Positions 20,162 to 54,679 of a stretch of DNA of 64,000 nt are shown here, piece after piece. The translations under genes and the position numbers were made by a program. Within the stretch, counting starts at the first letter, position 1, and each line of letters begins with the position of its first letter. The notes beneath the pieces were generated by a model. It searched no databases. It saw nothing but the letters and a program-made list of their open reading frames with translations, and was not told the DNA's origin. The DNA is from an uncultured Pseudomonadota bacterium (lineage in GTDB: Bacteria; Oederibacteriota; Muellerivitia; Muellerivitales; Muellerivitaceae): contig CAWJKT010000010.1 in the NCBI GenBank assembly GCA_963843375.1, positions 32,001 to 96,000 of the forward strand. The letters are read 5' to 3'.

Positions 20162-20175
20162 ATGTCCGGGATCAT
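20162..20175 (+). promoter_or_regulatory. ATGA-N6-TCAT box (1 mismatch)
   Basis: ATGTCCGGGATCAT; GAAAAT at 20198, 22 nt downstream. Confidence 0.55.
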
Positions 20176-20225
20176 ATGTAGCCGTCAGAAAAGGATAGAA
20201 AATATATAGCAGGAAGAGGCAAGCT

Positions 20226-21311
20226 ATGATCCTGCGATTGGATGGAACCATTAAAAGGGTGTTCCTCGTCCTCCAGATCATGTTTGTGGGAGGGTTGAAA
20301 TCTCTGTTTGCCGCCCCGCCCCAGGTCATGGTGTTGGATTGCACCAATTCAATGGTTCCATCCGATCTTACTTCCAAGTCAAGCGTGGTTTATCTTCCCA
20401 ACCATCATTTCGATGGTTCCACTTTCGAGGAAGATGGCACCATCAGTAAGGTTAATTTCAACAACCTTCTAAAGACAGGATTGAAAAAATCCAAGGGCCA
20501 GATTCGTTTTTTCTCAAGGAAAAACGATGAGATCGATGTTTATGTGGTGACCTCCATTCCCGTTAAAACCACCGCACAGATGTTGGACTCGTCCGTACCA
20601 CCGCCTGTTTTAATGGTTAGCGGGCCCCTGACCCTAGCCCTTCCGGCTCCTCAGGGAAAGGAAAAGGCCATCGCCGTCAGCCAGCCAGTGACTCTCTCTA
20701 TTCTTCAAACAGCCCGGTTTCTCTTGGAGGAACGTAAAAGGCCAACCTCGCTGGAAGCGGGGCATTCGGAGGTGGTCTCCAATTTTTTAGGGGTGAGCTT
20801 CAAGGCCATTCCGGCCTCCGATATCGATGGGAATGATTTTTATTACTATCATCTGGAAAAATACAAGTTAAAATCCGATAGCGGCACTCTTAAACTTTCA
20901 TTCCAGAACCAGAATGGAGATCAGCAAAACATTACGACCGTCATAACGGGTCCCTCGGAAAACTGGTTCCTGATGGCGGGCGGCCCGATCCATTCCTATA
21001 CCTTCGGGCCAAACGACTTCGATAATAACCCCGCAGGGCTTTACTTGAGCCTGAACTGGTCCATTCATGATATTTATGATCCTTCGCCCCGCTGGCTGAT
21101 TGTGAACCTACTGGACATCAACACCACTAATCCCACCCAAGCGATCGGGTTGGTGGGATTGGGAGTGGGTTTCCCTAAAATGAATGAATTCGTACCACTG
21201 TCTACCCTCGCCCTAACGGGAAGCTTGTTTTACAATCTCGATTTTTCACAGTTCCAGTTTGTCCTCATGATCAATTATGATCTGGGGGATATCTTTCAGA
21301 TTTTTCACTGA
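20226..21311 (+). CDS. Hypothetical exported protein
   Basis: 361-aa ORF with a hydrophobic N-terminus and a beta-rich C-terminus; no motif recognised. Confidence 0.7.
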   Translation: MILRLDGTIKRVFLVLQIMFVGGLKSLFAAPPQVMVLDCTNSMVPSDLTSKSSVVYLPNHHFDGSTFEEDGTISKVNFNNLLKTGLKKSKGQIRFFSRKNDEIDVYVVTSIPVKTTAQMLDSSVPPPVLMVSGPLTLALPAPQGKEKAIAVSQPVTLSILQTARFLLEERKRPTSLEAGHSEVVSNFLGVSFKAIPASDIDGNDFYYYHLEKYKLKSDSGTLKLSFQNQNGDQQNITTVITGPSENWFLMAGGPIHSYTFGPNDFDNNPAGLYLSLNWSIHDIYDPSPRWLIVNLLDINTTNPTQAIGLVGLGVGFPKMNEFVPLSTLALTGSLFYNLDFSQFQFVLMINYDLGDIFQIFH

Positions 21312-21347
21312 TACTTGTATTCTTTCATGGAGAAAAGAAAGGTTTTA

Positions 21348-23151
21348 TCATTTGGAAGCAATGATATCCTTGAGACAGCACCCGGGAGGATCCGTTTTGG
21401 TAAAGCGTAGCCCGGCATAATAGAGACGGATGTGCCCGTCTTCCCGGCTGGCGTGGACTGTGTCCCCGTCTGGATAGAAAAGCCCGGAGATCACCGCGTC
21501 CTCGGTCTGAAATGGATTCCAGGGTGATCAAATAGTCCGTATCCGTAATATCGAAAACTTTACTGGTTATTCTGGCATTGACGGTCAAGAGCCCTCCCCG
21601 GTCTTCCAAGGTCATATTTTTAAATTGGGTCTGGCCATCCGGGTTGTCTAACTGATATCGTCCCAAGCATTCCTGCCAGGCCAAGGGGATCGGGATGGGT
21701 TGGATCTTTTCGAAAACCACAGGGTCGCCCAGTCCACTCAGGATGGCTACGTCCTTTCCCTCGACTGTGGTGAATTCAACACCGTATTGGGGAATGTGAA
21801 TTGGAAAGAAGAGGATCATGATCCTCGGAATGAACTTGTTTTCGGCGGTAGGCACCAGGTCGAATTGGTGATCCATCAGGTCTGCTCTCAAATGGGCCCC
21901 CCCTTTGGAGATTTCGGCGGCCTTGCCGATCCCTGAATAAAACCCCACAAATTGATTTATTTTTTCCTCTGGGACACTGATCAACACCGGCATGACGATC
22001 TTGGGTTTCGTGAGGTCCGCAGGGACGCCGTATTTGGCCTCCCGCATCAATTTCAAAGCCCGGAGGGCCAGATCCCTCACTAGGAGACGCGATTCCTCGC
22101 AATTGGAAAAGATCACCACTCCCAGTTTTTCCTTTGTCAATAGGGCGATTCGGCAGAAATGGGGGACGTAGTCTCCGTCATGCCAAGCCAGGTTCTTGGT
22201 GTTGTCCATTCCCAAGCCATTCAGCATCCATCCCAGCCCCATGTGGTGGCCGAAATCCAGGGGTATCCCGGTGTACTGTTCCTGATACATTGAATTTAAA
22301 ATATCAGGTTTCACGAGAGAGGGCTGGTCAGTGAAAATAAATCTTAGGAGCCGAGCCATGTCGTCCGCGCTGGAAACCATCCCGCCGGCGGGAATGTCCC
22401 GTAAATAGAGCTGGGGTCTTTCCTTGCCGCCGCTATAGCCTTTGGCCATTCTTTCACGGACGGAAGGGCTTAGGTCGAAGGTGGAGGAATCCATGCCCAA
22501 TGGCCTCAATAAATGGTCCCGCATAGCGTCGCTAAAGGATTGGCGGTCTTTCAGTTCGATGATCCGGCCCAAAAGACTATAGTCCAAATCGGAGTATTTA
22601 TAAAAACTTTGGGGTGGCGCAACCAGGTAGTCTTGTTTCAAGTCCTCGGCTAGTTGGGCGAGGGATTCGGCTTTTTCCACCCACATGCCCTGGTGGTAAG
22701 CGGCCGGTAGCCCCGAATGGTGCGCCAGAAGGGAACGAATGGTGATTTCCTTCGAATCTTTGAAACGGCTGCGAATGGAGAAGCCCGGAAGGGCTTCAGC
22801 GACCGGTTGGTCCAAAGTGAGTCTGCCTTTTTGCGTCAATCGCATGATTTCCAAAGCCGTGAGAATCTTCGAGACCGAATCAACACGGTAAAGAGTGTCC
22901 GCTGTGGCGGGGATCTTGTTTTTTTCGTCCGCCTCCCCGAAGCCCGTTTTCCAAACTATCTTGCCGCCGTCGACCAGGGCTAGACTGAGCCCTTTTACAT
23001 TATCCCGACCCATGCCCTGTCGGATGAAGTCCTTCAAATTTTCAATAGTAGAGGTGTAGTCAGTCTGAGCGAATAGAACATCATAGGCCCAACCCTTTTG
23101 AACCACGACAGGCACCAAGGGTAGTAAGAATGAAAAAAAGAATATTAACAT
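21348..23151 (-). CDS. Serine hydrolase, beta-lactamase/AmpC family (frameshift ~21505)
   Basis: SVSK (SxxK), LLAHHSGLP, YSD, PAGGMVSS, WHDG; the shifted tail matches the paralog at 27962. Confidence 0.88.
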
Positions 23152-23267
23152 TGGAGATAAATGGAATTTGAAAAAACCCTTTTGGATTTTAAATTCCTGA
23201 ATTACTGTTCTTGCCGAGACGAAGGGTTTTATTGTTGCCCTTCGGGGTTTAAATATCTTTGATTGAC

Positions 23268-25153: not shown

Positions 25154-25167
25154 GTGATCCTAGTCAT
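25154..25167 (+). promoter_or_regulatory. ATGA-N6-TCAT box (1 mismatch)
   Basis: GTGATCCTAGTCAT; perfect TATAAT at 25189, 21 nt downstream. Confidence 0.7.
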
Positions 25168-25260
25168 ATTTAATAAATGTTTTAGAGGTATAATTTACTC
25201 AAGAAGTGATCTCTAAGGATCCCTCGGGGATTTTGGTCAAATAGAGGGTTGAGGTGCGTT

Positions 25261-25677
25261 ATGAAATTTAAAAAAAACACGCTGTTTTGGGTGGTGATTC
25301 TTTTTCCTTTCCTGGTTTGGACGTTAAAAAGTTCAGTGGTTTTGAGTGCACCATCGCCCATCCTGAGCACCGTGACGGGTTCGGATGTGGTGGCCACCCC
25401 CATTGGCACGACCATCGCCGTTACCCCGGTGGGAACACCTTTGGGAATTTTGGTGGGAACACCCATTCCTTATATCCCCATAGCCGTCAATATCTCCACT
25501 CCTATCCAATCCACCCCCTTGGGAATATCGATTGGCACCCCCGTTGGCCAGCCGGTGGTACCCATGACCCCAATTGGCGTGCCTTTTGGAACTATTACCC
25601 CCAAGCCCTCGGTAACACCTGAAATTACCCCGTTGAATGTAGTGGCGTCTCCGGCACCTGTGGTCACGCCGGAGTAA
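25261..25677 (+). CDS. Small exported Thr-Pro repeat protein
   Basis: GAGGTG RBS; MKFKKNTLFWVVILF signal; repeated TP[IVL]G. Confidence 0.7.
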   Translation: MKFKKNTLFWVVILFPFLVWTLKSSVVLSAPSPILSTVTGSDVVATPIGTTIAVTPVGTPLGILVGTPIPYIPIAVNISTPIQSTPLGISIGTPVGQPVVPMTPIGVPFGTITPKPSVTPEITPLNVVASPAPVVTPE

Positions 25678-27828: not shown

Positions 27829-27842
27829 ATGACCGGGGTCAT
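27829..27842 (-). promoter_or_regulatory. ATGA-N6-TCAT box
   Basis: ATGACCGGGGTCAT; weak -10 CATTCT 22 nt away on the minus strand, toward the SDR. Confidence 0.75.
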
Positions 27843-27873: not shown

Positions 27874-27887
27874 ATGACTCTGGTCAT
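27874..27887. promoter_or_regulatory. ATGA-N6-TCAT box
   Basis: ATGACTCTGGTCAT upstream of 27962; no good -10 at 22 nt. Confidence 0.7.
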
Positions 27888-27961: not shown

Positions 27962-29752
27962 ATGAAAATCCAAATTCTCTTTTTTCTCTTGGCTTTCCTT
28001 TTGACCGCTTCCCAGGGCTTTCTCCAAACCCCTCCGGACCCGGGTAAACCGGCCATCCCTTCGGTGAATTACGGCGGGGTTGAAAAGGACTTGGCAGAAT
28101 TTATCCGAAAAAAAATGGATCATGCGGACGTCAAGGGTTTAAGCCTCGCCCTGGTTGATGGAACCGGCGTCGTATGGGTGAAAGGTTTTGGTTTTGCCGA
28201 CGTCGCCCAAAAGATTCAGGCGACTGGCGACACTCTTTATTTACTTGGGGCGCCAACCAAGTTGTTCACGGCGGGAGAAATCCTTAAGCTAGCGGGGGAA
28301 GGTAAGGTTCGCCTGGACGATCCGCTCCAAAAGGATCTTCCCGGATTCTCCATCCATAGTCGCTTTAAGGTGGCCAAACCCATCACTCTGCGGGCCCTGC
28401 TGGCAAACCATTCGGGCCTGCCGGGCTTTTTCATCAAGGGGGCAATGGCCGATAAAACCGAAAACCTGGAACACTTTGTCATAGGATTGAGATCCGACTA
28501 CCTGACAGCGCCTCCACAGACACTCTATAAATACTCGTACGTCGATTACGATCTATTGGGTCGAATTATCGAACTAAAGAGAAAAAGTTCATTTGGGGAG
28601 GCCCTGCAAAAGGACTGGCTGGACCCCTTGGGAATGGATAATTCCACCTTCCACCGGAGTCCCGATTTGGAAGACCGGATGTCGAAAGGTTATTTGAGGG
28701 GTAAACCGACCCCCTTGAATCATCTGCGGGATGAACCTGCCGCAGGATTGATCACAAACGCCAGGGACATGTCGCGGTTCCTTTGTTTCGTCCTGGGGGC
28801 ACCCCTATCGAAAAGCGCCTCGCCCCTTTCCCGTGCCGCAATGGAATCCATGTTCGAACCCCAATATGGCGGTGCCGCACTTAATTTCGACCATGAGGTG
28901 GGCATTGGGTGGACCTTGAGCGGGTTGAACGTGGAGGGGTCCGAGGGGACGGCTTGGCACGACGGCGTCTATCCACCCTATGTCTCCGAGATAGCGGTCT
29001 TGGACAAACAAAAATTGGGGGTAGTGCTTTTGGCCAACTCGGAGGAGACCATTAAGATTGCCGATGACATCATCATCCGGGCCCTGAAGGGGATGCTGAA
29101 CGCCAAGTACGGACTAAAACTGGATTTGGAAAAGAAAAAAATAAAAATGCAAAAAATCGTGCAAGTTCCACTGGAAAGGCTGGACCGTTATACCGGTTCC
29201 TATTCCGCAGCGGGCCAACTAACTTCCGTCACTCGGCGGGGAAACCACCTGGCGACCGAACTGCTTCACTACGGGCTGGATCTGAACCCCATATCCCAAG
29301 ATACCTTCGTGCCGCGCTTCACCTTTCTTTTCTTCTTTACTTTTGACTTCCCAGAAAACACCATGACTTTTTCCACAGTTGAAGGGCATGACGTCACGGT
29401 TTTCAACGGGTTCACCTATCCGATCGTGCTGGAGAAAATCAATCCCATTCCCATCCCCGATACTTGGCGCAGGCGCATGGGGAACTATGTCCTGGAAAAC
29501 CCGGACGATTCGATCCAATTCAGGAAAGTTTCCTTAACCCAGAAAGACGGGTTCTTGACTGCGATGATGAAGGTTTCATTTCCCGCTTTTGACATCAGTG
29601 ACCGGGAATACAATGTGGCTCTGGAACCCATTTCAGACGAGGACGCCGTGGAACCGGGCCTTTTTTATGAGGACGGCGGCACATTGCATGCAGTGGAAGA
29701 TGGCGGTGCCACCCGACTCTATTACTCGGGTTATTGGTTCCGGAAGCAGTAA
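27962..29752 (+). CDS. Beta-lactamase-family serine hydrolase paralog lacking the catalytic Ser
   Basis: Colinear with 21348-23151, but APTK replaces SVSK; signal peptide; GAGGAG RBS. Confidence 0.88.
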   Translation: MKIQILFFLLAFLLTASQGFLQTPPDPGKPAIPSVNYGGVEKDLAEFIRKKMDHADVKGLSLALVDGTGVVWVKGFGFADVAQKIQATGDTLYLLGAPTKLFTAGEILKLAGEGKVRLDDPLQKDLPGFSIHSRFKVAKPITLRALLANHSGLPGFFIKGAMADKTENLEHFVIGLRSDYLTAPPQTLYKYSYVDYDLLGRIIELKRKSSFGEALQKDWLDPLGMDNSTFHRSPDLEDRMSKGYLRGKPTPLNHLRDEPAAGLITNARDMSRFLCFVLGAPLSKSASPLSRAAMESMFEPQYGGAALNFDHEVGIGWTLSGLNVEGSEGTAWHDGVYPPYVSEIAVLDKQKLGVVLLANSEETIKIADDIIIRALKGMLNAKYGLKLDLEKKKIKMQKIVQVPLERLDRYTGSYSAAGQLTSVTRRGNHLATELLHYGLDLNPISQDTFVPRFTFLFFFTFDFPENTMTFSTVEGHDVTVFNGFTYPIVLEKINPIPIPDTWRRRMGNYVLENPDDSIQFRKVSLTQKDGFLTAMMKVSFPAFDISDREYNVALEPISDEDAVEPGLFYEDGGTLHAVEDGGATRLYYSGYWFRKQ

Positions 29753-29830: not shown

Positions 29831-31135
29831 TCAGGCCTGGTGATGAAGACTAAAAATCCGCTTCCGGTCGTCATAGACGAAAATTTCAGCGTAACGGCCC
29901 CAGGCAATAACGGTCTGTAAGGTTCTTTCCGCATCGCTCTGGCTCAGGTGGTCCTCAAACTCAAGTTCGAACCTCCGTCGGGGCGCCTCATGCCCCTCCC
30001 TCTCCTCCAGGATGCGACAAATGTGGGCGGTGAGGGGAACAAAGCGCAACAGATGCTCCTTGAAAATCTTCAGGCGATCCTCCGGGCTGCTTTGGGCGAA
30101 CACCTGCCCGGCGGCGGTCAGCTTGACCTTGTTTTCTTGAAGTTCGGCGAATTCCAGTATATGGAGCGCTTCGGCAACCCCCAAAGGATGCTTGAGGCCT
30201 AGGAATGAGGAGTGGACCAAATCGGTAAATTCCGCCTGCCCTTCATATGGCTTTGCGGCAAGGGCCTCGATGAATGCCACGATTAAAGGGCTTCCCACGG
30301 CCGGCAAGGCCAGGGCCAAGCCGCCATGAAGTTTGCGTTCCGCCTTCAAAGACTCGGCTACACGCGAGGTCAGGATGGAATAGAATTCGTCCACAATATC
30401 GTGAAAAGCCGCGTCCAGACGGTTTCGGGGATGGGGAAGTGTGACGTTGATCTCCGCTTCAATTCGCCCCGGGCCCGAGGAAAGAACCAGTATCCGGTCG
30501 CACATTTGAACCGCCTCCTCAATATTGTGGGTCACGAGCAAGACCGCTTTGGTGGAAAGCTGGTGTTCCATATAGAGGTCCAGGAAATCAGTGCGTAGGG
30601 TTTCGGCAGTCAGGACGTCCAGCGCCGAAAAGGGCTCGTCCATCAACAACACCAAGGGCTGAATCACCGTGGCTCTGGCAAAACCAACCCGCTGGCGCAT
30701 TCCCCCGGACAACTCGCGTGGATAGGCGGATTGAAAACCGCTGAGCCCGATCAGGTCGATGGCGGCTAGAGAGCGGCGTCGGGCCTCCTCGCGGGATACT
30801 CCCATCGCGTCCAGACCGAGTTCAACATTCTCTAGAACCGTCAACCAGGGCATCAGGGCGAAAGTCTGGAATACAATGGCCATGCCGTCAGCGGGGCCCG
30901 TCAGAGGCTTGCCCTGAAAAAGCACTACTCCTGAACTGGGAGGCATCAGACCGCCTCCAATTCGCAGCAGAGTCGACTTTCCAGAACCCGAACGCCCCAG
31001 AAGACCTAGAATCTCACCTTCGCTTATTGAAAGATCGATGCCTTCCAGCGCTGTCAGTGGTTTGGCTGGAGGTCGTTCAAAGGCCTTACTCACCTTGCGC
31101 ATTTCCAGAATGACAGGTTTTTGTATCGATTCCAT
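29831..31135 (-). CDS. NitT/TauT-type ABC ATPase with C-terminal AAA-associated domain
   Basis: GRSGSGKS, LSGGMRQR, LMDEPFSALD, C-terminal WGRYAEIF. Confidence 0.93.
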   Translation of the reverse strand: MESIQKPVILEMRKVSKAFERPPAKPLTALEGIDLSISEGEILGLLGRSGSGKSTLLRIGGGLMPPSSGVVLFQGKPLTGPADGMAIVFQTFALMPWLTVLENVELGLDAMGVSREEARRRSLAAIDLIGLSGFQSAYPRELSGGMRQRVGFARATVIQPLVLLMDEPFSALDVLTAETLRTDFLDLYMEHQLSTKAVLLVTHNIEEAVQMCDRILVLSSGPGRIEAEINVTLPHPRNRLDAAFHDIVDEFYSILTSRVAESLKAERKLHGGLALALPAVGSPLIVAFIEALAAKPYEGQAEFTDLVHSSFLGLKHPLGVAEALHILEFAELQENKVKLTAAGQVFAQSSPEDRLKIFKEHLLRFVPLTAHICRILEEREGHEAPRRRFELEFEDHLSQSDAERTLQTVIAWGRYAEIFVYDDRKRIFSLHHQA

Positions 31136-31142: not shown

Positions 31143-32882
31143 TCAGTCCAGCTTAGTCCGTCGCTCTGCGAATATGTAGAGCGGTCTCCATATCAGCCGG
31201 TTCATCAATACGACAAAAACGGACATGACCGCCACCCCAAGCGCAATGCGGGGATAATCCCCAGCGTCCGTGGCTTGGGCAATATAGGCTCCCAAGCCCG
31301 AGGCGTTGAGTTTGGTATTTCCCCAAGAAACAACTTCCGAAACGATGGAAGCATTCCAGGACCCGCCCGCAGCGGTAATGGCTCCGGTAACGTAATAAGG
31401 AAAAATTCCCGGGAGCATAACTTGGCGCCACCAGCGCCAGCCCCGCACATGGAAGCAATTGGCCGCTTCCCTCAAATCGCTTGGGAATGCGCTGGCGCCA
31501 GCAATCACATTAAATAAGATGTACCACTGAGTTCCAAGGATCATCAAAGGGGTCAACCAGACCTTGGGGCTAAGGTGGAACCGAAGGATTAGGAAGACCG
31601 CGACGGGAAAAAGCAGGTTCGCAGGAAAGGCAGCAAGGAACTGGGCGATAGGCTGAACCTTTTCAGCCAGTTTCGGCCGAAGCCCAACCATGACGCCGAT
31701 GGGAACCCATATCACCGACGCGATGATAATCAGGATGATTACCCGCATTAACGTGAGGAACCCGTTGTTGATTACCGTTGTTAGATCGGCCCAAGCTAGT
31801 GTCGGGGCAGTAAATTCGATCGCTTTCCTTATCAGAAAAGCCAATAGCGCAACCATCGCCCCCACCCAAACAATATCCCCGAGGTGTTTGTGAGAAGAGT
31901 TGGCCCGAAAGGGCCTGGGTCGGAACAAGGAAAAACGGGACCGGGCGATGCCCTGCAGAGCTAGTCCAAACGGTTCCACCAATCGTCGCACCAACTTGGC
32001 TTGACGGAAGAGATCCAACAGTAGACTCCGGGATCCAACCAGGCCCGCCGTTTGTTCATAGCGGAACTTGTCCGCCCAAGCCACCATCGGCCGGAACATC
32101 AACTGATCATAGAGGACGATGGTGATTGTCATCGCCAAAATCGCCCATCCAACCGCCGGCAAATTCCGCTGGTTAATGGCCAGTGCGACGTAGGATCCGA
32201 TTCCCGGTAGGGCTACGTTGATCGTGCCCACCGTGATTGCCTCGGATGCGACGACAAAGAACCAGCCGCCGGACATTGACATCATGGTATTCCAGATGAG
32301 CCCAGGCATCGCGAAGGGCACCTCAATGCGCCAGAAGCGTTGCCAGGCGGATAAACGGAACCCCCGGCCAGCTTCATCCAGGTCGGTTGGAATTGTCCGC
32401 AAGGACTGATAGAAGCTGAAGGTCATATTCCAGGCTTGGGAGGTGAAAATCGCGAAGATTGCGGCTAGTTCCGGACCCAGGACGCTTCCGGGAAATAGCG
32501 AGATGAAAAAAACGACCGTAAAGGACAAGTATCCGAGCACGGGAACGGATTGAAGAACGTCGAGGAGCGGGATGAGAATCATTTCCGCTCGGCGGCTCTT
32601 GGCCGCTGCGGTGGCGTAGGTAAAGGTGAAGAGCAAGGAGGCTAGGAGGGCCGCGAACATCCGAAAGGTTGTTCGAAGGGCACAAACCGGAAGGGTCGAA
32701 GGAGATAGTGAAATGGTAGACGGCTGCGCCAAGGTAAAAGGCCCGGTCAACTGGCGCGCACCCGATCCCACGAGAATCACGATCCCCAAGACAAGGATCA
32801 GTGCCGCCAAATCTCGCCAACCGGGGATTTGCGGCTTCCACGTTTTTCCGATGAGTATTTCCGCGTGCTGTTCCACGTTCAT
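31143..32882 (-). CDS. NitT/TauT-type ABC permease (double-length)
   Basis: LDVLQSVP, FTSQAWN, MMMSMSGGWF, GGSWNASIVSE. Confidence 0.92.
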   Translation of the reverse strand: MNVEQHAEILIGKTWKPQIPGWRDLAALILVLGIVILVGSGARQLTGPFTLAQPSTISLSPSTLPVCALRTTFRMFAALLASLLFTFTYATAAAKSRRAEMILIPLLDVLQSVPVLGYLSFTVVFFISLFPGSVLGPELAAIFAIFTSQAWNMTFSFYQSLRTIPTDLDEAGRGFRLSAWQRFWRIEVPFAMPGLIWNTMMSMSGGWFFVVASEAITVGTINVALPGIGSYVALAINQRNLPAVGWAILAMTITIVLYDQLMFRPMVAWADKFRYEQTAGLVGSRSLLLDLFRQAKLVRRLVEPFGLALQGIARSRFSLFRPRPFRANSSHKHLGDIVWVGAMVALLAFLIRKAIEFTAPTLAWADLTTVINNGFLTLMRVIILIIIASVIWVPIGVMVGLRPKLAEKVQPIAQFLAAFPANLLFPVAVFLILRFHLSPKVWLTPLMILGTQWYILFNVIAGASAFPSDLREAANCFHVRGWRWWRQVMLPGIFPYYVTGAITAAGGSWNASIVSEVVSWGNTKLNASGLGAYIAQATDAGDYPRIALGVAVMSVFVVLMNRLIWRPLYIFAERRTKLD

Positions 32883-32931: not shown

Positions 32932-32945
32932 ATGACAGGAGTCAT
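32932..32945. promoter_or_regulatory. ATGA-N6-TCAT box, bidirectional promoter
   Basis: ATGACAGGAGTCAT; TATTCT (+, 32968) and TATCAT (-, 32909-32904), each 22 nt away. Confidence 0.85.
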
Positions 32946-33749: not shown

Positions 33750-33763
33750 ATGAGCCCCGTCAT
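33750..33763 (+). promoter_or_regulatory. ATGA-N6-TCAT box
   Basis: ATGAGCCCCGTCAT; GAAAAT 22 nt downstream. Confidence 0.8.
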
Positions 33764-34636: not shown

Positions 34637-34650
34637 ATGATGGGAGTCAT
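34637..34650 (+). promoter_or_regulatory. ATGA-N6-TCAT box
   Basis: ATGATGGGAGTCAT; TAAATT 22 nt downstream. Confidence 0.85.
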
Positions 34651-39563: not shown

Positions 39564-39577
39564 ATGATCCAGATCAT
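39564..39577 (+). promoter_or_regulatory. ATGA-N6-TCAT box
   Basis: ATGATCCAGATCAT; TATAAG 22 nt downstream (39600). Confidence 0.85.
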
Positions 39578-40069: not shown

Positions 40070-40083
40070 GTGATCTTGGTCAT
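40070..40083 (+). promoter_or_regulatory. ATGA-N6-TCAT box (1 mismatch)
   Basis: GTGATCTTGGTCAT; GAAAAT 22 nt downstream. Confidence 0.75.
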
Positions 40084-42950: not shown

Positions 42951-42987
42951 TGATTCATCCTGATTAACGCCAAAAGTTTGGTTAAGG

Positions 42988-43239
42988 CTAATCGGCAATT
43001 CTTTTTGAAGGGACTAGCAAGAAAATACCCGCTAGAACCCAAAGGTCAAAGGCGGTCATGAAAAAGCAATAAATGACTGTAACCCATGCGAAAAGTGGGC
43101 GCTGGTCCCACAAGTCATTCCAGGACTGCAGGAGGGTATAGTCGGATAATTGGGAAAGGCTTAAAAGACCAGCGGCTACCATGGCGGTTCCCATTAAAGT
43201 CAACGAACCCATCGTGGCTAGAATTTGTGTTTTATTCAT
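42988..43239 (-). CDS. Small two-TM membrane protein
   Basis: AGGAGG RBS; 83 aa with two hydrophobic stretches. Confidence 0.7.
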   Translation of the reverse strand: MNKTQILATMGSLTLMGTAMVAAGLLSLSQLSDYTLLQSWNDLWDQRPLFAWVTVIYCFFMTAFDLWVLAGIFLLVPSKRIAD

Positions 43240-43330: not shown

Positions 43331-43344
43331 ATGATTTCTGTCAT
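43331..43344 (-). promoter_or_regulatory. ATGA-N6-TCAT box
   Basis: ATGATTTCTGTCAT; TAATTT 22 nt away on the minus strand. Confidence 0.85.
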
Positions 43345-43478: not shown

Positions 43479-44591
43479 TTATGCCCTAATTGCAACCATT
43501 TCGGCTGGAATGTATGAACAAAAAGGATCGGCTCCCATTATATCCCCGGTCAGGGCATAAGCTCTGGCTCTGGACCCTCCGCAAAGACGACGGTATTCAC
43601 ATTTTCCGCACTTCCCATTTAGGGAGTCGGTATCCCGCAATTTTTGAAAGAGCGGGCTTTCCCGATAAATTCCGTCCAACGGCTGGTCCTTCACGTTGCC
43701 TGCCGAAAGGGGTAGAAAACCGCTGGGACAAACATCCCCTTTATGAGATATAAAAACAAAGCCCCGGCCATCACCCACGCCCCGCGAGGTTCTTTGAAGG
43801 ACCGGGTCAGGGCGGAGGGTTAAGGCTTCCGGTAGCTCATCGGGTGTTATGCCATAACTCTGGAGGATCACCCGGCGGAAATGGTGGGCTTCGGTGGTTT
43901 TGACATCGAACCATCCCTGCTTAAGAATGTCATAAAGCTGCTTCAATACTTTTTCTGTCTCGGGGGCAGTTAAGGTTTGGTTCTTTTGGGCTCTTCCGGT
44001 TGGCACTAAAAAAAAGACCGACCAAAGGTCGATGGAAAATCGCCGGATGAGCTGGGCTATTTCCCAAACTTGGAACTTGTTATGCCGGCCGATCGTGGTG
44101 TTGATCTGAAGGTGCATTCCTAATTCCCGGATTGTTTGGGACGCCTCAAGGACCCGGTCAAAGGTGCCGGGGATACCGCGGAAAAGATCGTGTGTGACTG
44201 CGTTGGCACCATCCAGAGAAAGGGAAATCCGTTGAAGACCTTCATCCCGTAATTCCTCCAGGCGTTCCCTAGTTAACAAGGGGGTCACAGAAGGAGCCAA
44301 GGCAAAGTTCATCTTTCGTTGCGTGCATTCCCTGACCAGAAGGGTCAAATCCGGCCGTTTCAAAGGGTCCCCCCCTGTCATTACAAAAAGGGGGACACCC
44401 CAGTCCGCCAGTTGGTGGATCAAATCTAATGCTTGCCTTGTGTCAAGTTCATCGGGATAAATTTGGGATTGGGCCTCGGCCCGGCAATGGACGCAGGCCA
44501 AATCGCAAGCCCTTGTTGTTTCCCAAATGGCGATATAGGGTCGGTCGGCATGTCGGGCTGTTGGTTTTTGGGGCGCAGAGATTTTTTCCAT
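43479..44591 (-). CDS. Radical SAM/SPASM protein, AhbD/NirJ-like
   Basis: WETTRACDLACVHC, TGGDP, C-terminal CGKCEYRRLCGGSRARA..DPFC. Confidence 0.88.
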   Translation of the reverse strand: MEKISAPQKPTARHADRPYIAIWETTRACDLACVHCRAEAQSQIYPDELDTRQALDLIHQLADWGVPLFVMTGGDPLKRPDLTLLVRECTQRKMNFALAPSVTPLLTRERLEELRDEGLQRISLSLDGANAVTHDLFRGIPGTFDRVLEASQTIRELGMHLQINTTIGRHNKFQVWEIAQLIRRFSIDLWSVFFLVPTGRAQKNQTLTAPETEKVLKQLYDILKQGWFDVKTTEAHHFRRVILQSYGITPDELPEALTLRPDPVLQRTSRGVGDGRGFVFISHKGDVCPSGFLPLSAGNVKDQPLDGIYRESPLFQKLRDTDSLNGKCGKCEYRRLCGGSRARAYALTGDIMGADPFCSYIPAEMVAIRA

Positions 44592-44664: not shown

Positions 44665-44678
44665 ATGATTCTGCTCAT
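44665..44678. promoter_or_regulatory. ATGA-N6-TCAT box
   Basis: ATGATTCTGCTCAT; TAAAGT 22 nt away on the minus strand. Confidence 0.85.
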
Positions 44679-44787
44679 AAAGGGTTTAAGGGGAATGGTT
44701 GTTAAATAGGTCTTTGTTTAAGCACGTTATTCTGAAGGACGGTTTTTGAACAAACCTGTTCTTTTTCCGAATTCAAAAGGGGTTTTA

Positions 44788-46236
44788 ATGACTGAACCAA
44801 TGATTATCCAGGGTGGTATGGGAGTAGCAGTTTCCAATTGGAGACTAGCCCGAGCGGTTTCCAAAACCGGACAACTGGGGGTGGTATCCGGAACAGCCCT
44901 GGAAAACGTCCTAGCCCGCCGGCTTCAATTGGGGGACCAGGATGGTTCCGTTCGTCTGGCTTTGGATCATTTCCCGAATCCGACCATCGCCCGGAAGATT
45001 TTGGAAAGTTATTTCATACAAGGAGGGAAAACGAAAGGTGTCCCTTTCAAAAGTACGCACATGTTTTCCCTGAAATCGCCGCGGGAGTTAGTGGAGTTAA
45101 CTGTTGCGGCTAATTTCGTCGAGGTTTTTCTGGCTAAATTGGGACATCAGGGTCTGGTGGGAGTCAACTACCTGGAGAAAATACAACTTCCAACTTTGCC
45201 ATCACTCTATGGCGCGCTTTTGGCCGGAGTGGATTATGTTCTCATGGGGGCGGGAATTCCTCGCTCCATTCCCGCATTACTTGATCAATTGGTTTTACAC
45301 CAAGAAGTTTCATTAAAAGTTCAAGTTCAAGGTGCGGCTCCGGAGGATGATTATCGGGTATCTTTCGATCCCAAGGATGTTTTGGAATTCCCTGGAACTC
45401 CTTTGAAACGCCCCAAGTTCATCGCCATCGTCTCTTCGGAGATTCTAGCCATTACCTTGGCCAAGAAATCCACCGGGAAGATTGATGGATTTGTTATCGA
45501 AAATCCAAGCGCGGGCGGACACAACGCCCCGCCAAGGGGACCCCTCCATTTGAATGAAAAAGGTGAACCCCTTTATGGACCCAAAGATAAAGTGGATTTA
45601 GGTGCCTTCCGAAACCTAGCACTGCCTTTTTGGTTGGCTGGATCCTGCGCCGATCCCCAAAAACTCGTGGATGCGATTTCCCAAGGCGCCAACGGCATCC
45701 AAGTAGGAACCGTATTCGCCTATTGCGAGGAATCAGGGCTTATGGATCGAATCAAGCGGAAGGTTTTTACAAAAACCTTGAAGGGGGAGGAAGAGGTTTT
45801 TACCGATCCTGTGGCGTCTCCAACCGGTTTTCCTTTTAAGATTGTACGATTGGAGGGAACCATTTCGGAAAAAGAAGAATATAGGGATCGTCCAAGGACT
45901 TGTGATTTGGGTTATCTCAGAACGGTTTATAAACGAAAAGATGGAACGGTAGGCTATCGTTGCCCCGGGGAACCAAAGGAAATCTATCTTCAAAAAGAAG
46001 GAAAAGAAGAGGAGATGGATGGCCGCAAATGTATCTGCAACGGATTGATGGCCGGAATTGGATTAGGACAGGAACATAGAAATGGTTACCAGGAAAAACC
46101 GCTTGTGACTTCAGGCGACGATTTGGCCCGGATTGCCTCGATTCTTAAAGGGGATTATCTTTCATACACGGCTTCAGACGTTATTCGATACTTACTGAGT
46201 GCTTTAGGGGCTGGATTTGAACCCATGCCAACGTAA
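44788..46236 (+). CDS. Nitronate monooxygenase/FabK-like flavoprotein
   Basis: PMIIQGGMGVAVS, MGAGIP, AGGHN, IQVGTVF, SPTGFP. Confidence 0.85.
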   Translation: MTEPMIIQGGMGVAVSNWRLARAVSKTGQLGVVSGTALENVLARRLQLGDQDGSVRLALDHFPNPTIARKILESYFIQGGKTKGVPFKSTHMFSLKSPRELVELTVAANFVEVFLAKLGHQGLVGVNYLEKIQLPTLPSLYGALLAGVDYVLMGAGIPRSIPALLDQLVLHQEVSLKVQVQGAAPEDDYRVSFDPKDVLEFPGTPLKRPKFIAIVSSEILAITLAKKSTGKIDGFVIENPSAGGHNAPPRGPLHLNEKGEPLYGPKDKVDLGAFRNLALPFWLAGSCADPQKLVDAISQGANGIQVGTVFAYCEESGLMDRIKRKVFTKTLKGEEEVFTDPVASPTGFPFKIVRLEGTISEKEEYRDRPRTCDLGYLRTVYKRKDGTVGYRCPGEPKEIYLQKEGKEEEMDGRKCICNGLMAGIGLGQEHRNGYQEKPLVTSGDDLARIASILKGDYLSYTASDVIRYLLSALGAGFEPMPT

Positions 46237-47391: not shown

Positions 47392-47405
47392 ATGATCCAA
47401 ATCAT
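47392..47405. promoter_or_regulatory. ATGA-N6-TCAT box, bidirectional promoter
   Basis: ATGATCCAAATCAT; TATACT (+, 47428) and TAAATT (-, 47369-47364), each 22 nt away. Confidence 0.88.
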
Positions 47406-47986: not shown

Positions 47987-48808
47987 ATGCCGACCGCCGA
48001 AATAAATAAGCAAATGGAGATTACCGAAAAATCAGAGGGATTAGACAAGCCCAGCGCCAAAACATGGGACGGACTTTCCCGAATGGCTTTCGCCGCCAAT
48101 TGGGATCCGGAAACGGCAGTAAATTGGAACCTACCCATCGAGTTGGGAAACGTTCGTGAAGGGTGGATCAATATCCTTCATTATTTTTACGAAGGCGAAT
48201 GGCAGGGGTTGGAAATCATTCAACGCCTCATGAACAAGGCGGCCCACTTATTTAACAAACCCGAGATGGTCACCTACTATTCCACCCAATGCTCGGATGA
48301 AGCAAAACACCTCCTGGTTTTCCGGAAATACCTTTATAAATTGAACTCGCCACCGGCTCGACAAAAAGTTTTTGACATTCTGGTTTGGTTGGCTACCAGC
48401 GGACCTTTGCCAGTAGAGCGATGGATATTAGGGACCTATTTTACCGAGACCATGGCCGGTGCCATTTTCCAGAAAACGCTGGAACTTCCCGCCATTGATC
48501 CTACCGGCAAGGAAATGATTCGGCTCCAACTTAAAGACGAATCCAGGCATATCGCCGGCACTAAACTGGGAGTTCAAACCCTGATGGATCATTGCGGGCC
48601 TATCAAGACCTGGATTTTAAAGGCTTGGTGGAAATTATTCGTGAAACTGGCGGTGAAGGAAGTCCGTGCCTTGAAACCTTACGGGGATCAGGTGGGAATG
48701 GACCCGGAATACATTCTCCACAAGTGTTTTTCTAAGATGGCCGAAATGAAGGAATTTGAACAAAAATTCCTTACTTTTTCCCAGGCCCAATACTTTTTAA
48801 GAAACTGA
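47987..48808 (+). CDS. Ferritin-like di-iron carboxylate protein
   Basis: GE...DEAKH...E...DESRH. Confidence 0.8.
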   Translation: MPTAEINKQMEITEKSEGLDKPSAKTWDGLSRMAFAANWDPETAVNWNLPIELGNVREGWINILHYFYEGEWQGLEIIQRLMNKAAHLFNKPEMVTYYSTQCSDEAKHLLVFRKYLYKLNSPPARQKVFDILVWLATSGPLPVERWILGTYFTETMAGAIFQKTLELPAIDPTGKEMIRLQLKDESRHIAGTKLGVQTLMDHCGPIKTWILKAWWKLFVKLAVKEVRALKPYGDQVGMDPEYILHKCFSKMAEMKEFEQKFLTFSQAQYFLRN

Positions 48809-48810: not shown

Positions 48811-50133
48811 ATGAAAGCCGCGTCCTTACCGGAAAGTTTTTTCAAGTTGACAAGCCAGATTACCCGTTGGTTTCCAAAAAAGGGGGCGAAAGCCCTGAAT
48901 AATGTTCTTTTTCCAATCCTGGGTAATCAATGGCTGGTGGATTCCTTTCGAAGGGCCAACCAAAAGAAGTTAAAAAAACTATCCTCTTTCAACCATCTTT
49001 TGGTGATTTCGGACATCCATATCGGTGATGCGGTTTTGATCCAAACGGCGGTTTCAGCCCTGCGGGATTTTTTTCCGAGTGCCCGGATCGATTATATGAT
49101 TAAAAAATCCGCTTCCTGTCTCTTGGAAGGCCATCCGGAAATCTCGGAGTTGTGGCCAGTTTTCATAGGGGCCCGGTTTCCTATCGAATCGGACATTCAA
49201 AACGTCCAAGAAATGTCGGTGGAGTATGACGCGGTTTTTAATTTTAGTCCCTTTCTCAATGCGAATTGCTTTCCGGAAGGATCGAACGTTTTTCATTTCA
49301 TGACTTACGCAGCCGATTTCGCCCAGAATGAATGGAAAGGAACGGGGATTAACCATATTTCCTATCAAGTCCATAGGTTTATTTATGATTTGTTTCATCC
49401 CTTGTTCTCGCTTAACAGGGCCCGCCAGTTTGAAGGCCCGGCTTTATTTCTTTCACCGCAGGCCATTGGGGAAGCCCGAGACTTCATTGAACAAACAACC
49501 GGTTCGGAAATGAAACCGATTGTTTTTTTGAATCCGGAAACAGCATCCCCCTTTACCCAGATTCCCATGATTTATCAACGGGAGCTTCTTCAGGGATTGT
49601 TGGAATTACCTTGCCGAATTCTCGTGGGGGAGGGGCATGTCCATCGGGAACTAACGGAACAACTACAGTTCTCGGTCCCAATTTGGCAAAGGAAGCGAAT
49701 CGCAATTGTTCCTGCTAGCATGTCCTTGGATGCCTATGCGGCCCTTATTGATTGGAGCAATATCTTCGTTTCAGGGGATACGGGTCCATTGCACATGGCC
49801 GCTGCTTGGAAAAAAGATCGAAGTGGACAATATTCCTTTCGAAACCAGACCTCAGTCCTTAGCGTCTTTGGGGCGACTCCCCCGAGATTGTCGGGATATG
49901 ATTCCTTCCGTTGGGAATTTTTGGAAGCGGAACAAAAAGCTTGGTCCCATGTCTATCAATCCGAAAGTTCCTGCCGAAACATAACTTGCATGCATAAAAT
50001 GGGAAAAGCCTGTAACGCCAAAGGTTGCTTTCAGTCCCTGGACACGGAAAAAATTCTTTCCGATATCAAAGACATTCTCCAAGAGCTATCGTTATCTTCT
50101 TCGAAAATGGAAAGCGTCTCTTCGAAAACATGA
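48811..50133 (+). CDS. Glycosyltransferase family 9
   Basis: HIGDAVL..SALRDFFPSARI, SGDTGPLHMAAA, VFGAT. Confidence 0.88.
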   Translation: MKAASLPESFFKLTSQITRWFPKKGAKALNNVLFPILGNQWLVDSFRRANQKKLKKLSSFNHLLVISDIHIGDAVLIQTAVSALRDFFPSARIDYMIKKSASCLLEGHPEISELWPVFIGARFPIESDIQNVQEMSVEYDAVFNFSPFLNANCFPEGSNVFHFMTYAADFAQNEWKGTGINHISYQVHRFIYDLFHPLFSLNRARQFEGPALFLSPQAIGEARDFIEQTTGSEMKPIVFLNPETASPFTQIPMIYQRELLQGLLELPCRILVGEGHVHRELTEQLQFSVPIWQRKRIAIVPASMSLDAYAALIDWSNIFVSGDTGPLHMAAAWKKDRSGQYSFRNQTSVLSVFGATPPRLSGYDSFRWEFLEAEQKAWSHVYQSESSCRNITCMHKMGKACNAKGCFQSLDTEKILSDIKDILQELSLSSSKMESVSSKT

Positions 50134-52800: not shown

Positions 52801-52814
52801 ATGACGAAGATCAT
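52801..52814 (-). promoter_or_regulatory. ATGA-N6-TCAT box
   Basis: ATGACGAAGATCAT; TAAACT 22 nt away on the minus strand. Confidence 0.85.
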
Positions 52815-52937: not shown

Positions 52938-53723
52938 TCATGAAACCTTGCGCCTGTTGAAGTTTTTAGACATTCGGATGGTATTTTGGATAATTCGATT
53001 ACGGCCCTTTTCCTTTGCCTCGTAAAGGGCCTGGTCTGCCAGGGCGATCAGTTGGCGGTAGTTTAAGCCCGAACTCTCGTAACTTGTCACGACACCTAAG
53101 CTGACTGTCAATTGGACCCGGTGATTATTTTGCACAAAAAGGTGCCTTTGTGTGGCTTTGCGGATCCGTTCGGCGACGATTCGCCCCTGAACCTGATCAC
53201 AATTGGGAAGGATGCAAAGAAATTCTTCCCCGCCGTAGCGGGCCACTGTGTCCCCTTCCCGAAGACATCGTCGAAAAATCATAGCAAAATGTTTTAAGAC
53301 GTAATCTCCGAAAGGATGACCATAAGTGTCATTGATTCTTTTGAAGTGATCCAGGTCCAGCATGAAGCAGGAGATAGGAAGGCGATTGGTGAGGTGGCGC
53401 CTAAACTCGATTTTGAAGGTGTCGTGAAGATAGCGGTGATTGCCCAAGCCGGTTAAGGGGTCAGTCAATACTTCTTTGGATAATACCGCGTCTTTTCGAA
53501 TGAGATGGTCCTCGCTTCGTCCGATGAAAAAACCAAAAATGGCGAAAACCAAGCATGTGTTAATGAGCATGTAAAGATAGAAATAATAATGGAGCGTCCA
53601 TTCTTGTGCGAGGAAAGTCGCAAAGGGAGTAGCGGAAAATAAAAATCTTGGAATAAATATTCCAAGTGGGGCGCCTGTACCGAGCAATAATCCAAAGAGG
53701 GTGAATAAATAGGACTTTTTCAT
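52938..53723 (-). CDS. Membrane diguanylate cyclase (GGDEF)
   Basis: Two TM helices, DPLTGLGN, DLDHFK, REGD I-site, RYGGEEF. Confidence 0.93.
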   Translation of the reverse strand: MKKSYLFTLFGLLLGTGAPLGIFIPRFLFSATPFATFLAQEWTLHYYFYLYMLINTCLVFAIFGFFIGRSEDHLIRKDAVLSKEVLTDPLTGLGNHRYLHDTFKIEFRRHLTNRLPISCFMLDLDHFKRINDTYGHPFGDYVLKHFAMIFRRCLREGDTVARYGGEEFLCILPNCDQVQGRIVAERIRKATQRHLFVQNNHRVQLTVSLGVVTSYESSGLNYRQLIALADQALYEAKEKGRNRIIQNTIRMSKNFNRRKVS

Positions 53724-53768
53724 ATATCCCCCTTTTAATTATTTTTCATCATTCGGGGGAATATTTAA

Positions 53769-53782
53769 ATGACAATCATCAT
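53769..53782 (-). promoter_or_regulatory. ATGA-N6-TCAT box
   Basis: ATGACAATCATCAT; AAAAAT 22 nt away on the minus strand. Confidence 0.75.
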
Positions 53783-54085
53783 ATGAAAGGGGTTAAAACC
53801 GGAAATCCATCAACGCTCATGCTGGGTTGCCGGGAAAGCCCCATATCTATTGCCTTTTTCAAGTCAAAGCCAGCTCGTAAGGTCCTTTTCTGGGTTACTT
53901 TTTCGGCTTCAATAGACGTGCGCTTTGGATTTTAATTTCTCAGGTTTTTCGAATTTTGCCCAGATTTTTGAAGAATTGTACCTGTTTTTCCCTTTTTAGG
54001 ATTTGGGCCCGAGTGCCTGGCTTGGAAAGTTTCCGGCTGCCATCCGAGGAATAAAGAATATATTTTCCTTTCCCTGTCCGTTTAA

Positions 54086-54607
54086 TCATGATCTTTGCCC
54101 CCCTTCGGGTTGGGTATCTTTATCAAAAGAGTCGACGGAAAAAGTGAGCAAGCGGCATAAAGCGGATTTTTCCTCGATGCCGATTACCCTTTCTAATTCC
54201 GGATAAAGAATCCGCTCTTCCCGAAGGGAATGGTGTTCAATGAACTTCTTGAAGTGGGCTTCATCATCCAAAAGAGAAATGACATCCTTGACGGCAGCCA
54301 CGAAATCCAATCGAGAAAGCCTTAATTTGATGCGGTTCAACCATTCATCGATTTTTTGGTGTTCCTGGATGAAAGTGTCGGGGTCCCCTCCGCGAATGGG
54401 GGCGACTCTTTTACTGTAAAGAGGCAAAAGGATTTCCTCCTCCTCTTTTAAATGACATCGGAGAGCTTCTTCATAGGTTTTAAGCAGACGAGTTGCGTTT
54501 GATCTTGTCGGTTTCAAAAGGGCCACTTGATGATGAAAGAACAACTCATCCAATTCCCGGTGGATATTACTTAAGTCCAATAGGCTTTTAGGAGGGGAAG
54601 GGATCAT
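54086..54607 (-). CDS. Hemerythrin (HHE) domain protein
   Basis: H..., HLKEEE..L, EH, HSLREERILYP. Confidence 0.85.
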   Translation of the reverse strand: MIPSPPKSLLDLSNIHRELDELFFHHQVALLKPTRSNATRLLKTYEEALRCHLKEEEEILLPLYSKRVAPIRGGDPDTFIQEHQKIDEWLNRIKLRLSRLDFVAAVKDVISLLDDEAHFKKFIEHHSLREERILYPELERVIGIEEKSALCRLLTFSVDSFDKDTQPEGGQRS

Positions 54608-54665
54608 GTTTATTCCTTATTTTTTTAAACCGTTTTTATGATAATTTTCAGTTTTCAGAATCCAT

Positions 54666-54679
54666 ATGACCGGTCTCAT
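54666..54679 (-). promoter_or_regulatory. ATGA-N6-TCAT box
   Basis: ATGACCGGTCTCAT; TATCAT 22 nt away on the minus strand. Confidence 0.85.

Follow-up and report, generated by a model that had tools for sequence, protein, structure and literature searches.

Genes and boxes at the locus

The stretch of DNA analyzed here (the window, 64 kb, numbered 1-64000) corresponds to positions 32001-96000 of contig C10 in the assembly of an uncultured bacterium (GCA_963843375.1; 4.05 Mb, 32 contigs, 80% complete, 4% contamination). It carries a series of short palindromes (boxes) with the core ATGA-N6-TCAT, which stand upstream of genes encoding two Ric proteins, a hemerythrin and a cytochrome c, among others. 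Judging from their sequence and surroundings, these boxes are probably the sites of a dimeric activator of the Crp/Fnr family acting at class II promoters, and the most likely candidate for this activator is a 219-residue, cysteine-rich protein (the regulator), which is encoded just beyond the right end of the window. An earlier examination of the letters of the window (the sequence-only reading) had proposed such an activator and had listed 15 boxes between positions 20162 and 54679, 12 of them perfect and three with one mismatch. Contrary to what was assumed there, the cluster continues past 54679: four more perfect boxes are found to the right of the window, at the window-equivalent positions 65038, 65251, 66799, and 69626 (C10:97038, 97251, 98799, and 101626). 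It thus extends 5.6 kb beyond the window and consists of 19 boxes in 50 kb (C10:52-102 kb), the last of which stands directly before the gene of the regulator.

The boxes are given below from left to right, the gap being the number of nucleotides (nt) between the 14-bp core of the box and a -10-like hexamer; these -10 elements are consensus matches. The first box, ATGTCCGGGATCAT (20162..20175, plus strand, one mismatch, 17.2 bits in the matrix described below), has GAAAAT at gap 22 and faces an open reading frame (ORF) of 361 amino acids (aa) at 20226-21311, for which no match was obtained in Pfam or NCBIfam. The second, GTGATCCTAGTCAT (25154..25167, plus strand, one mismatch, 16.9 bits), has TATAAT at gap 21 and faces a small ORF belonging to an unknown family (25249-25677). 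Two boxes stand close together thereafter. The one at 27829..27842 (minus strand), which has CATTCT at gap 22, faces a gene encoding a dehydrogenase of the short-chain dehydrogenase/reductase (SDR) type, similar to FabG (26970 to about 27740, minus strand), and is kept upstream of the orthologous gene in genome G001. The other, at 27874..27887 (plus strand), adjoins the gene of an AmpH-like serine hydrolase with a beta-lactamase fold (about 27962-29752); it shows no -10-like hexamer at gap 22 and might serve the divergent SDR promoter as an additional site.

The box at 32932..32945 is common to two divergent promoters, with TATCAT at gap 22 on the side of an operon encoding the permease and ATPase of an ATP-binding cassette (ABC) importer (31143-32882 and 29831-31135, minus strand) and TATTCT at gap 22 on the side of a DedA/VTT gene (32990-33439, plus strand). 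The next box (33750..33763, plus strand, GAAAAT at gap 22) faces the gene of Ric1, composed of ScdA_N and hemerythrin domains (33844-34578); boxes were also found upstream of the Ric orthologs in G001, G016, G018, G002, G008, and G012. The box at 34637..34650 (plus strand, TAAATT at gap 22) faces the gene of a MacB-type ABC exporter (34698-36449), which is followed by those of a metallophosphoesterase (36748-37914) and an NRAMP transporter (38216-39427). Two boxes precede the Ric2 gene. Directly downstream of the first (39564..39577, plus strand, TATAAG at gap 22, predicted start at about 39612) there is no protein gene, and the candidate RNA behind it has no family, as no Rfam family reached its gathering score in the window between 19600 and 64000. 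The second (40070..40083, plus strand, one mismatch, 19.2 bits, GAAAAT at gap 22) faces Ric2 itself (40135-40914), behind which two phosphoribosyltransferase genes are located (40868-41587 and 41584-42255).

Further to the right, the box at 43331..43344 (minus strand, TAATTT at gap 22) faces an 83-aa ORF (42988-43239) and the gene of a dihaem-type cytochrome c (42318-42998), and the box at 44665..44678 (minus strand, TAAAGT at gap 22) faces a radical S-adenosylmethionine (SAM)/SPASM gene (43479-44591), the product of which belongs to the TIGR04053 family and is AhbD-like, with a score below the AhbD cut-off. The divergent gene at the latter box (44746-46236), which resembles those of nitronate monooxygenase (NMO) and FabK, has no -10 at gap 22. 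The box at 47392..47405, which lies in a 12-4-12 palindrome, is common to two sides: TAAATT faces a fatty-acid desaturase gene (46293 to about 47345, minus strand), and TATACT faces small ORFs, the gene of an AurF-like di-iron protein (47987-48808) and that of a glycosyltransferase of family GT9 (48811-50133), each at gap 22. The last three boxes of the window, all on the minus strand, are those at 52801..52814 (TAAACT at gap 22; lowest matrix score, 13.0 bits), facing the gene of the H+-pyrophosphatase HppA (50407 to about 52740), at 53769..53782 (AAAAAT at gap 22), facing the gene of a GGDEF diguanylate cyclase (52938-53723), and at 54666..54679 (TATCAT at gap 22), facing that of the hemerythrin (54086-54607). 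The genes located past the window encode two YceI proteins, a stand-alone protein binding cyclic nucleotide monophosphates (cNMP), a histidine kinase, a zinc-dependent alcohol dehydrogenase (ADH), and the regulator.

The gene content of the cluster, which comprises iron-centre repair, proteins binding oxygen or nitric oxide (NO), metal transport, and membrane changes, is similar to that of regulons responding to NO or O2 stress. This is a matter of resemblance only, and the label of a "hypoxia/NO dormancy" regulon used in the sequence-only reading is drawn from this gene content only. A search of sequencing runs listed no RNA data set containing this DNA.

Sequence and distribution of the boxes

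Perfect ATGA-N6-TCAT palindromes occur 14 times in the window, vs. a mean of 0.65 and a maximum of 3 in 100 dinucleotide-preserving shuffles, none of which reached 14. All the 12 perfect boxes listed previously are present among them. The two that had been missed, at 4869 in the part of the window having a guanine plus cytosine (GC) content of 70%, and at 49385 inside the GT9 glycosyltransferase ORF, are probably chance or coding matches. Matches with at most one mismatch number 55 in the window, vs. 17.0 expected. The three one-mismatch boxes (20162, 25154, and 40070) do exist, but they had been picked from among 41 such matches, and their credibility therefore rests on their intergenic position and their -10 spacing rather than on the pattern itself; their matrix scores (16.9-19.2 bits) are circular, since these sites sat in the training set.

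The alignment of the 19 boxes, i.e., the 15 previously listed and the four beyond the window, gives the consensus wTATGAY-N4-RTCATAw, where the T, G, and A of one half and the T, C, and A of the other are invariant or nearly so. The base preceding the TGA core is A in 36 of the 38 symmetrised half-sites, and conservation is limited to the inner 14-18 bp. Scanning the whole genome with a position-weight matrix derived from the 19 boxes of the cluster itself yielded 24 matches scoring at least 17 bits, vs. 2.7 in block-shuffled controls. Fifteen of them fall in C10:52-102 kb, which makes up 1.2% of the genome, where 0.3 would be expected (binomial tail about 3e-23); the scores inside the cluster are circular, because the matrix came from the same 19 boxes.

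Eighteen of these 24 matches are intergenic, three lie within 120 nt of the start of an ORF and three are deep in ORFs, although the total length of deep coding DNA is about 6.6 times that of intergenic DNA according to the rough longest-ORF calls on which this partition is based. A looser form of the pattern matched at 132 positions genome-wide, 71 of which are deep in coding DNA, and the densities per 10 kb were 0.77 in intergenic DNA, 0.54 in the first 120 nt of ORFs and 0.23 deep in ORFs: the motif is therefore not equally frequent in coding DNA, but denser between genes. Outside the cluster, 18 sites score at least 15 bits, about half a dozen of which show a phased -10 facing a gene. The genes behind these outside sites, an acyl-CoA dehydrogenase gene and mostly unknown ones, give no clue to the signal. 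A box considered at C9:110829 was discarded as probably due to chance; it overlaps a start-codon region and has no -10 at gap 22.

Position of the boxes in the predicted promoters

The hexamer nAnnnT was found exactly 22 nt from the 14-bp core on 17 of the 23 gene-facing sides of the 19 boxes, these sides having been chosen by eye from a rough ORF map, and 10 of these 17 hexamers are of the TAnnnT type. At any other gap between 8 and 39 nt, at most five of the 23 sides carry such a hexamer. The proportion at gap 22 is 2/15 on the sides that do not face a gene, and the intergenic background amounts to 7.3%. The claim that 13 of the 15 boxes listed previously have a -10-like hexamer at 22 nt, and one more at 21 nt, was borne out: nAnnnT occurs at gap 22 in 12 of the 15, TATAAG is present at the same distance from box 39564 and TATAAT occurs at gap 21 from box 25154, while nothing convincing as a -10 accompanies box 27874.

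If transcription starts 7 nt past the hexamer, a gap of 22 nt places the centre of the box at -41.5. CRP and FNR activate class II promoters from about this position. At boxes 32932, 47392, and 69626, which are located between divergent genes, a -10 is present at gap 22 on both sides. The sequence at the -35 position matches TTGACA at no more than two of the six bases in 17 of the 22 promoters, and at three or four bases in the other five. The predicted 5' untranslated regions are mostly 10-57 nt long and contain Shine-Dalgarno sequences.

Two promoters of the right-hand part of the cluster show particularities. In that of the histidine kinase (box C10:98799, window-equivalent 66799), the -10-like hexamer, of the CATCAT or TATGAT type, is at gap 21, and four of the five related genomes compared show the same offset in the orthologous promoter. 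In the regulator's own promoter (L021:5626-5676, window-equivalent 69626-69676), TAATTT at gap 22 is followed by 6 nt and then by the ATG, so that the predicted start site falls on the ATG and the mRNA would be leaderless, provided the start codon is right; the orthologs of the regulator in other genomes appear to begin further upstream.

The candidate cysteine-rich regulator

The statement that no regulator of this kind is encoded in the window is literally correct, but a Crp/Fnr gene is located 5.7 kb past its right end (C10:101674-102333, i.e., window-equivalent 69674-70333 or L021:5674-6333). The box at C10:101626 lies 35 nt upstream of its ATG. The 219-aa product consists of a cNMP-binding domain (PF00027, 66.7 bits vs. 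a cut-off of 27.5, residues 31-118) and a C-terminal helix-turn-helix domain (PF13545, HTH_Crp_2, 51.6 bits vs. 27; PF00325, 28.1 vs. 21). It reached none of the equivalog or subfamily cut-offs of NCBIfam: the scores and cut-offs were 62.6/266 for CRP (NF008732), 52.5/245 for NtcA, 45.1/300 for FixK, and 38.6/228 for Fnr (NF008365). The closest relative with a solved structure, in terms of sequence, is a Crp-family protein of Thermus (4ev0, E 2e-19). An AlphaFold2 model of the regulator, with a predicted local distance difference test score (pLDDT) of 80, was superimposed on Mycobacterium tuberculosis CRP, GlxR, and holo-FNR (4a2u, 4cyd, and 9qly) with template modelling (TM) scores of 0.84-0.85 at 20-24% identity.

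A search of 5.8 billion proteins gave 222 relatives at E values of at most 1e-20, all of which have generic names; the 120 listed among them come from metagenomes or metagenome-assembled genomes. The 121 sequences compared, i.e., P0001 plus these 120 relatives, carry the cysteines C72, C83, C84, and C93 without exception, whereas C85 occurs in 87 of them. The regulator has no cysteine before residue 72, and the four invariant ones are inside the beta-roll. In cNMP-binding domains, the cyclic phosphate is held by the Glu and the Arg of the phosphate-binding cassette. In the alignment with 4ev0, FGTCCCF...YPC is found opposite the FGE...RS cassette, with T82 in place of the Glu and Y91-P92 in place of the Arg-Ser, so that both phosphate-holding residues are gone from the regulator; three of the four invariant cysteines sit in this former cassette.

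The recognition helix of the regulator reads TVETCIR. Among the same 121 sequences, this helix was found in 77, TVETSIR in 36, TVESSIR in five, and SVETCVR in one, two being unmatched by the pattern used. This helix retains the Glu and the Arg by which CRP and FNR recognize the TGA core, and a Val occupies the position of CRP Arg180. The FNR helix is of the form Val-Glu-Thr...Arg, with Ser212 where the regulator has Ile (a literature search on these FNR residues gave nothing relevant). In the Crp/Fnr family, residue 180 co-varies with the base occupied by G in CRP-like and by T in FNR-like motifs, as documented by Rodionov et al. 2005 (PMC1274295). The corresponding base in the boxes of the cluster is A, which the replacement of CRP Arg180 by Val, together with that of the FNR Ser by Ile, may explain.

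The source genome contains a second Crp/Fnr system on contig C9 (boxes at C9:100871, 110048, and 110880; genes at C9:110162-111708), consisting of a paralog (C9:110162-110875) and a divergent third Ric gene. The helix of this paralog is VREVVSR, with Arg at the CRP Arg180 position, and the boxes nearby are of the GTGAC/T-N4-GTCAC type. Since Arg thus occurs beside G-type boxes, this system provides an internal control for the co-variation between residue and base. In the related genomes, the Ric paralogs also have GTGAC-N4-GTCAC boxes, from which a -10-like hexamer is likewise separated by 22 nt.

Conservation in related genomes

Ten related regulator loci were compared, seven of which are labelled as candidate division FCPU426 and three as proteobacterium. 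Nine of these 20-kb loci carry one to five perfect boxes and one carries none; in six of the ten, a box is located 48-187 nt upstream of the start of the alignment with the regulator. The pattern ATGAY-N4-RTCAT was then counted in 31 genomes of a sample of the phylum. The genomes with a regulator match of at least 62% identity have 28-60 matches, vs. 7-21 in 12 genomes of other families and 10 in G017, a genome 97% complete without any regulator match. Two genomes with regulators 58-61% identical, G003 and G006, have 35 and 41 matches, respectively. The reversed pattern, used as a control, gave 0-8 matches per genome.

The regulator gene and a Ric gene are present on the same contig, within tens of kb of each other, in five genomes. 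The boxes scoring at least 15 bits in these five syntenic regions number 17 in 80 kb, seven in 75 kb, 20 in 75 kb, six in 40 kb, and four in 35 kb, vs. about 0.1-0.25 expected per region (shuffles of the source genome gave about 12 such matches per 4 Mb). In 36 of these 54 boxes, one or both sides carry the nAnnnT hexamer at gap 22, vs. at most 15 at any other gap.

Orthologs were then scored for the presence of a box of at least 15 bits within 350 nt upstream; seven of the query genes had no usable ortholog. The box is present upstream of the regulator and histidine kinase genes in 5/5 genomes, upstream of those of the hemerythrin in 3/5, with a fourth at 14.6 bits, of Ric1 in 3/5, of the radical SAM protein in 2/3, of the NMO-like protein in 2/4, of YceI in 2/2 and of the SDR, MacB, and ADH proteins in the single genome available in each case. 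It is less frequent or absent upstream of the genes for the cytochrome c (1/3), the desaturase (1/5), the AurF-like protein (0/2), HppA (0/1), and the GGDEF protein (0/2). Among the targets claimed in the sequence-only reading, Ric1, the hemerythrin, and the radical SAM enzyme thus find support in the orthologs examined, whereas HppA and the GGDEF protein (no boxes) and the desaturase do not. The pattern is that of a conserved core, consisting of the regulator, the kinase, the hemerythrin, Ric, the radical SAM enzyme, and YceI, with a variable periphery.

Proposed mechanism and alternative explanations

The enrichment of the boxes, their 22-nt phasing, the linked regulator gene, the conservation, and the co-occurrence of boxes and regulator across genomes all support the earlier proposal of one Crp/Fnr-type activator of variant specificity acting from about -41.5. 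According to the mechanism proposed here, a dimer of the regulator would bind to the wTATGAY-N4-RTCATAw boxes centred near -41.5 and would recruit RNA polymerase to promoters having no usable -35, i.e., by class II activation. Since a box stands before its own gene, autoregulation is predicted, and the regulator would activate its own synthesis. Its activity would be set by a cofactor bound to the four cysteines and responding to O2, NO, or a related redox stress. An iron-sulfur (Fe-S) cluster held by C72, C83, C84, and C93 is tentatively favored as the likeliest cofactor on the basis of these residues; the alternatives are another metal site, such as a zinc site, a thiol/disulfide switch, or haem. 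The binding to DNA, the positive sense of the regulation, the nature of the cofactor, and that of the signal are all predictions of this kind.

Several observations weigh against this interpretation. The gene-facing sides were chosen by eye and the matrix scores inside the cluster are circular, as mentioned above, and two sides, that of box 27874 and the plus side of box 44665, lack a phased -10. The loop carrying the cysteines was modelled with low confidence (pLDDT 52 at residues 81-90, the lowest part of the model), and tandem cysteines are an unusual set of ligands. In the phyletic comparison, G007 and G011 have regulators 57-60% identical to that of the source genome but only 9 and 11 pattern matches, and G014 (63% complete) and G015 (82% complete) have 22 and 17 matches, although no regulator was detected in them; no P value is given for this comparison, because related genomes are not independent samples. 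The orthologs of the cytochrome c, desaturase, AurF-like, HppA, and GGDEF genes, with few or no boxes, point in the same direction.

The boxes might be used mainly or also by another protein. A paralog encoded at C4:437890-438585 is 49% identical to the regulator and has the same kind of helix (SVETCIR, in the context SVETCIRTFS) without the CCC motif; with such a helix it could bind to the same boxes, which also counts against assigning them to the regulator. Two signals would then be integrated at one set of promoters, as occurs with the pairs formed by FNR or ANR with DNR or FixK-type proteins, and most of the related genomes do contain several paralogs from this clade, a TVETSIR subclade among them. 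However, the C4 gene stands apart from the cluster and shows no box in its 150 upstream nt, whereas in five other genomes the gene of the cysteine-rich protein shares a contig with the cluster and is preceded by a box in 5/5. This possibility is therefore regarded as unlikely.

Another explanation would be that the boxes are the operators of a repressor, belonging to the Crp/Fnr family or some other one, and that the phasing reflects the occlusion of the promoters. Some Crp/Fnr proteins do act as repressors, and a site ending at -35 overlaps the position of region 4 of sigma. However, the -35 is poor at nearly all these promoters, which would be weak without any help, and the operators of repressors are mostly found over the -10 or the start site, without a constant position, whereas the exact phasing and the single boxes serving two divergent promoters at 22 nt are hallmarks of class II activation, as established for CRP and FNR. 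Repression as the main function of the boxes is accordingly judged to be quite improbable.

The palindromes might also be recombination sites, cassette boundaries, or a repetitive extragenic element rather than the sites of a transcription factor, since the boxes set apart many single genes or small operons and those at 47392 and 69626 lie within extended palindromes of 26-28 bp. This reading was rejected as having very little likelihood: the boxes are located upstream of genes in either orientation and never at their 3' ends, they keep a fixed phase to a -10 hexamer, they accompany the orthologous genes even where genera differ in gene order, conservation is confined to the inner 14-18 bp, and an inverted-repeat scan of the window from 19676 to 64000 detected no family of long palindromes. 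An artefact of composition or codon usage, which might be suspected because start codons and their complements are found within ATGA and TCAT, 71 of the 132 loose matches are deep in coding DNA and some intergenic ones overlap start codons (that at C9:110829 reads ATG ATG GCC GTC ATG on the minus strand), is hardly tenable and was rejected on the basis of the shuffled and reversed-pattern controls (0.65 vs. 14 observed; 0-8 vs. 28-60 per genome), the flanks, positions 5 and 10, and the -10 phasing being conserved as well.

Probable assembly mis-join and extent of the cluster

The GC content is about 70% in the first 20000 positions of the window and about 49% in the remaining part. Most of the contigs of the source genome have GC contents of 47-52% (about 49-50%), the same as the box cluster. 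Contigs from two public sequencing runs (X1 record 1 and X3 record 17) match the window only from position 19676 rightwards, and carry sequences unlike the window to the left of this point. A putative mis-join of the assembly, which is not a part of the regulon, is therefore placed at 19675..19676: the assembly contig is probably a chimera joined at this point, and positions 1-19675 of the window are likely derived from another organism. The left border seen in the window may consequently not be the real one of the cluster. The idea that the boxes occupy a compositional island was ruled out, since the cluster, at 49% GC, has the composition of the normal genome and the oddity is the GC-rich left part; the "35 kb island" described previously thus probably owes its apparent left border to an assembly artefact. 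Comparable jumps in GC content are present in contigs C4, C24, and C27 of the assembly, and the mis-join is a practical warning to users of the latter.

A palindrome of another kind is present in the right part of the window. This perfect 14-2-14 palindrome (TATACAGTTGTATA/TATACAACTGTATA, 61807-61836) is located between a gene of the TetR family (61128-61778) and a polyketide-cyclase-like gene (61921-62568), upstream of an efflux operon (54735-61131), and is probably a TetR operator.

Comparison with known systems and significance

Like FNR/ANR, CRP, or HcpR, the system proposed here would work at class II promoters. FNR/ANR (in Escherichia coli FNR, TTGAT-N4-ATCAA at -41.5) is alike in the superfamily, the fold, and the TGA-N6-TCA core of the site, as well as in the spacing of about 22 nt between the site and the -10, the weak -35, and a gene content related to O2, NO, and iron centres. 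The regulator differs from FNR proper in that it lacks the N-terminal cysteine cluster, its first cysteine being C72, and in its score of 38.6 bits vs. the Fnr model cut-off of 228. The boxes have A where FNR sites have their first T, and Ile replaces the FNR Ser. In addition, the FNR regulon is dispersed, whereas the targets here are packed in one 50-kb cluster. The best matches of the regulator in terms of sequence and structure are CRP, GlxR, and M. tuberculosis CRP (TGTGA-N6-TCACA; 4a2u and 4cyd, TM 0.84), which also act at class II promoters. The differences are the absence of the Glu and Arg of the cassette, the low score (62.6 bits vs. 266) and identity (20-24%), the presence of Val instead of Arg180, and the A in the box where the CRP site has G.

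Similarities with the NO-responsive regulators HcpR, DNR, and NnrR include the co-variation between the residues of the helix and the bases of the motif (Rodionov et al. 2005, PMC1274295) and the occurrence of several paralogs with different boxes per genome. According to the same paper, genes resembling those of hemerythrin, cytochrome c, and ferredoxin are often part of the predicted regulons of such factors, HcpR included, and dnrN/ytfE (Ric), a typical gene of NO regulons, is found in those of NsrR (PMC1274295). The box described here, with its A, matches none of the three motifs taken from that source, wTGTGA-N6-TCACAw, wyTTGAC-N4-GTCAArw, and GTAAC-N4-GTTAC (PMC1274295). The core target of HcpR, hcp (PF03063), was not found in the 80%-complete source genome. 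The sensor of DNR and of Porphyromonas gingivalis HcpR is haem, which is another difference from the four-cysteine motif of the regulator. DosR of M. tuberculosis likewise places a few dozen genes of the hypoxia/NO type, several of them clustered, under one regulator, but, as a NarL/LuxR-type response regulator, it has another motif and another mechanism.

No description of the box, of the four-cysteine subfamily, or of regulation in FCPU426 was found by performing word searches in the open-access literature, which does not prove that there is none. Judging from titles and the opening lines of abstracts, the papers on FCPU426 among the matches listed are surveys, none of which deals with gene regulation. 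It is quite possible, though rather less likely than not, that the whole represents an undescribed branch of the Crp/Fnr family, in which the cNMP pocket has been turned into a four-cysteine Fe-S or metal sensor, the helix reads A, and about twenty activator-dependent promoters are run in a 50-70-kb supercluster of redox/NO-stress genes kept across the genera of an uncultured candidate-phylum lineage. The regulon is a solid and testable prediction, in which both the sensor and the clustering are out of the ordinary, and not a new principle.

To those studying Crp/Fnr proteins, the system would offer a natural third variant of the code linking residue to base, combined with the replacement of the cyclic AMP cassette by four invariant cysteines. 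It is unusual for so many separate promoters of a single regulon to be clustered tightly and in a conserved manner, which may serve for the study of regulon clustering. About 25 genes, several of which have unknown functions, can be named as likely to act together. The lineage has no cultured member, and the predicted regulon would be the first testable handle on the redox/NO response of these soil and peat bacteria.

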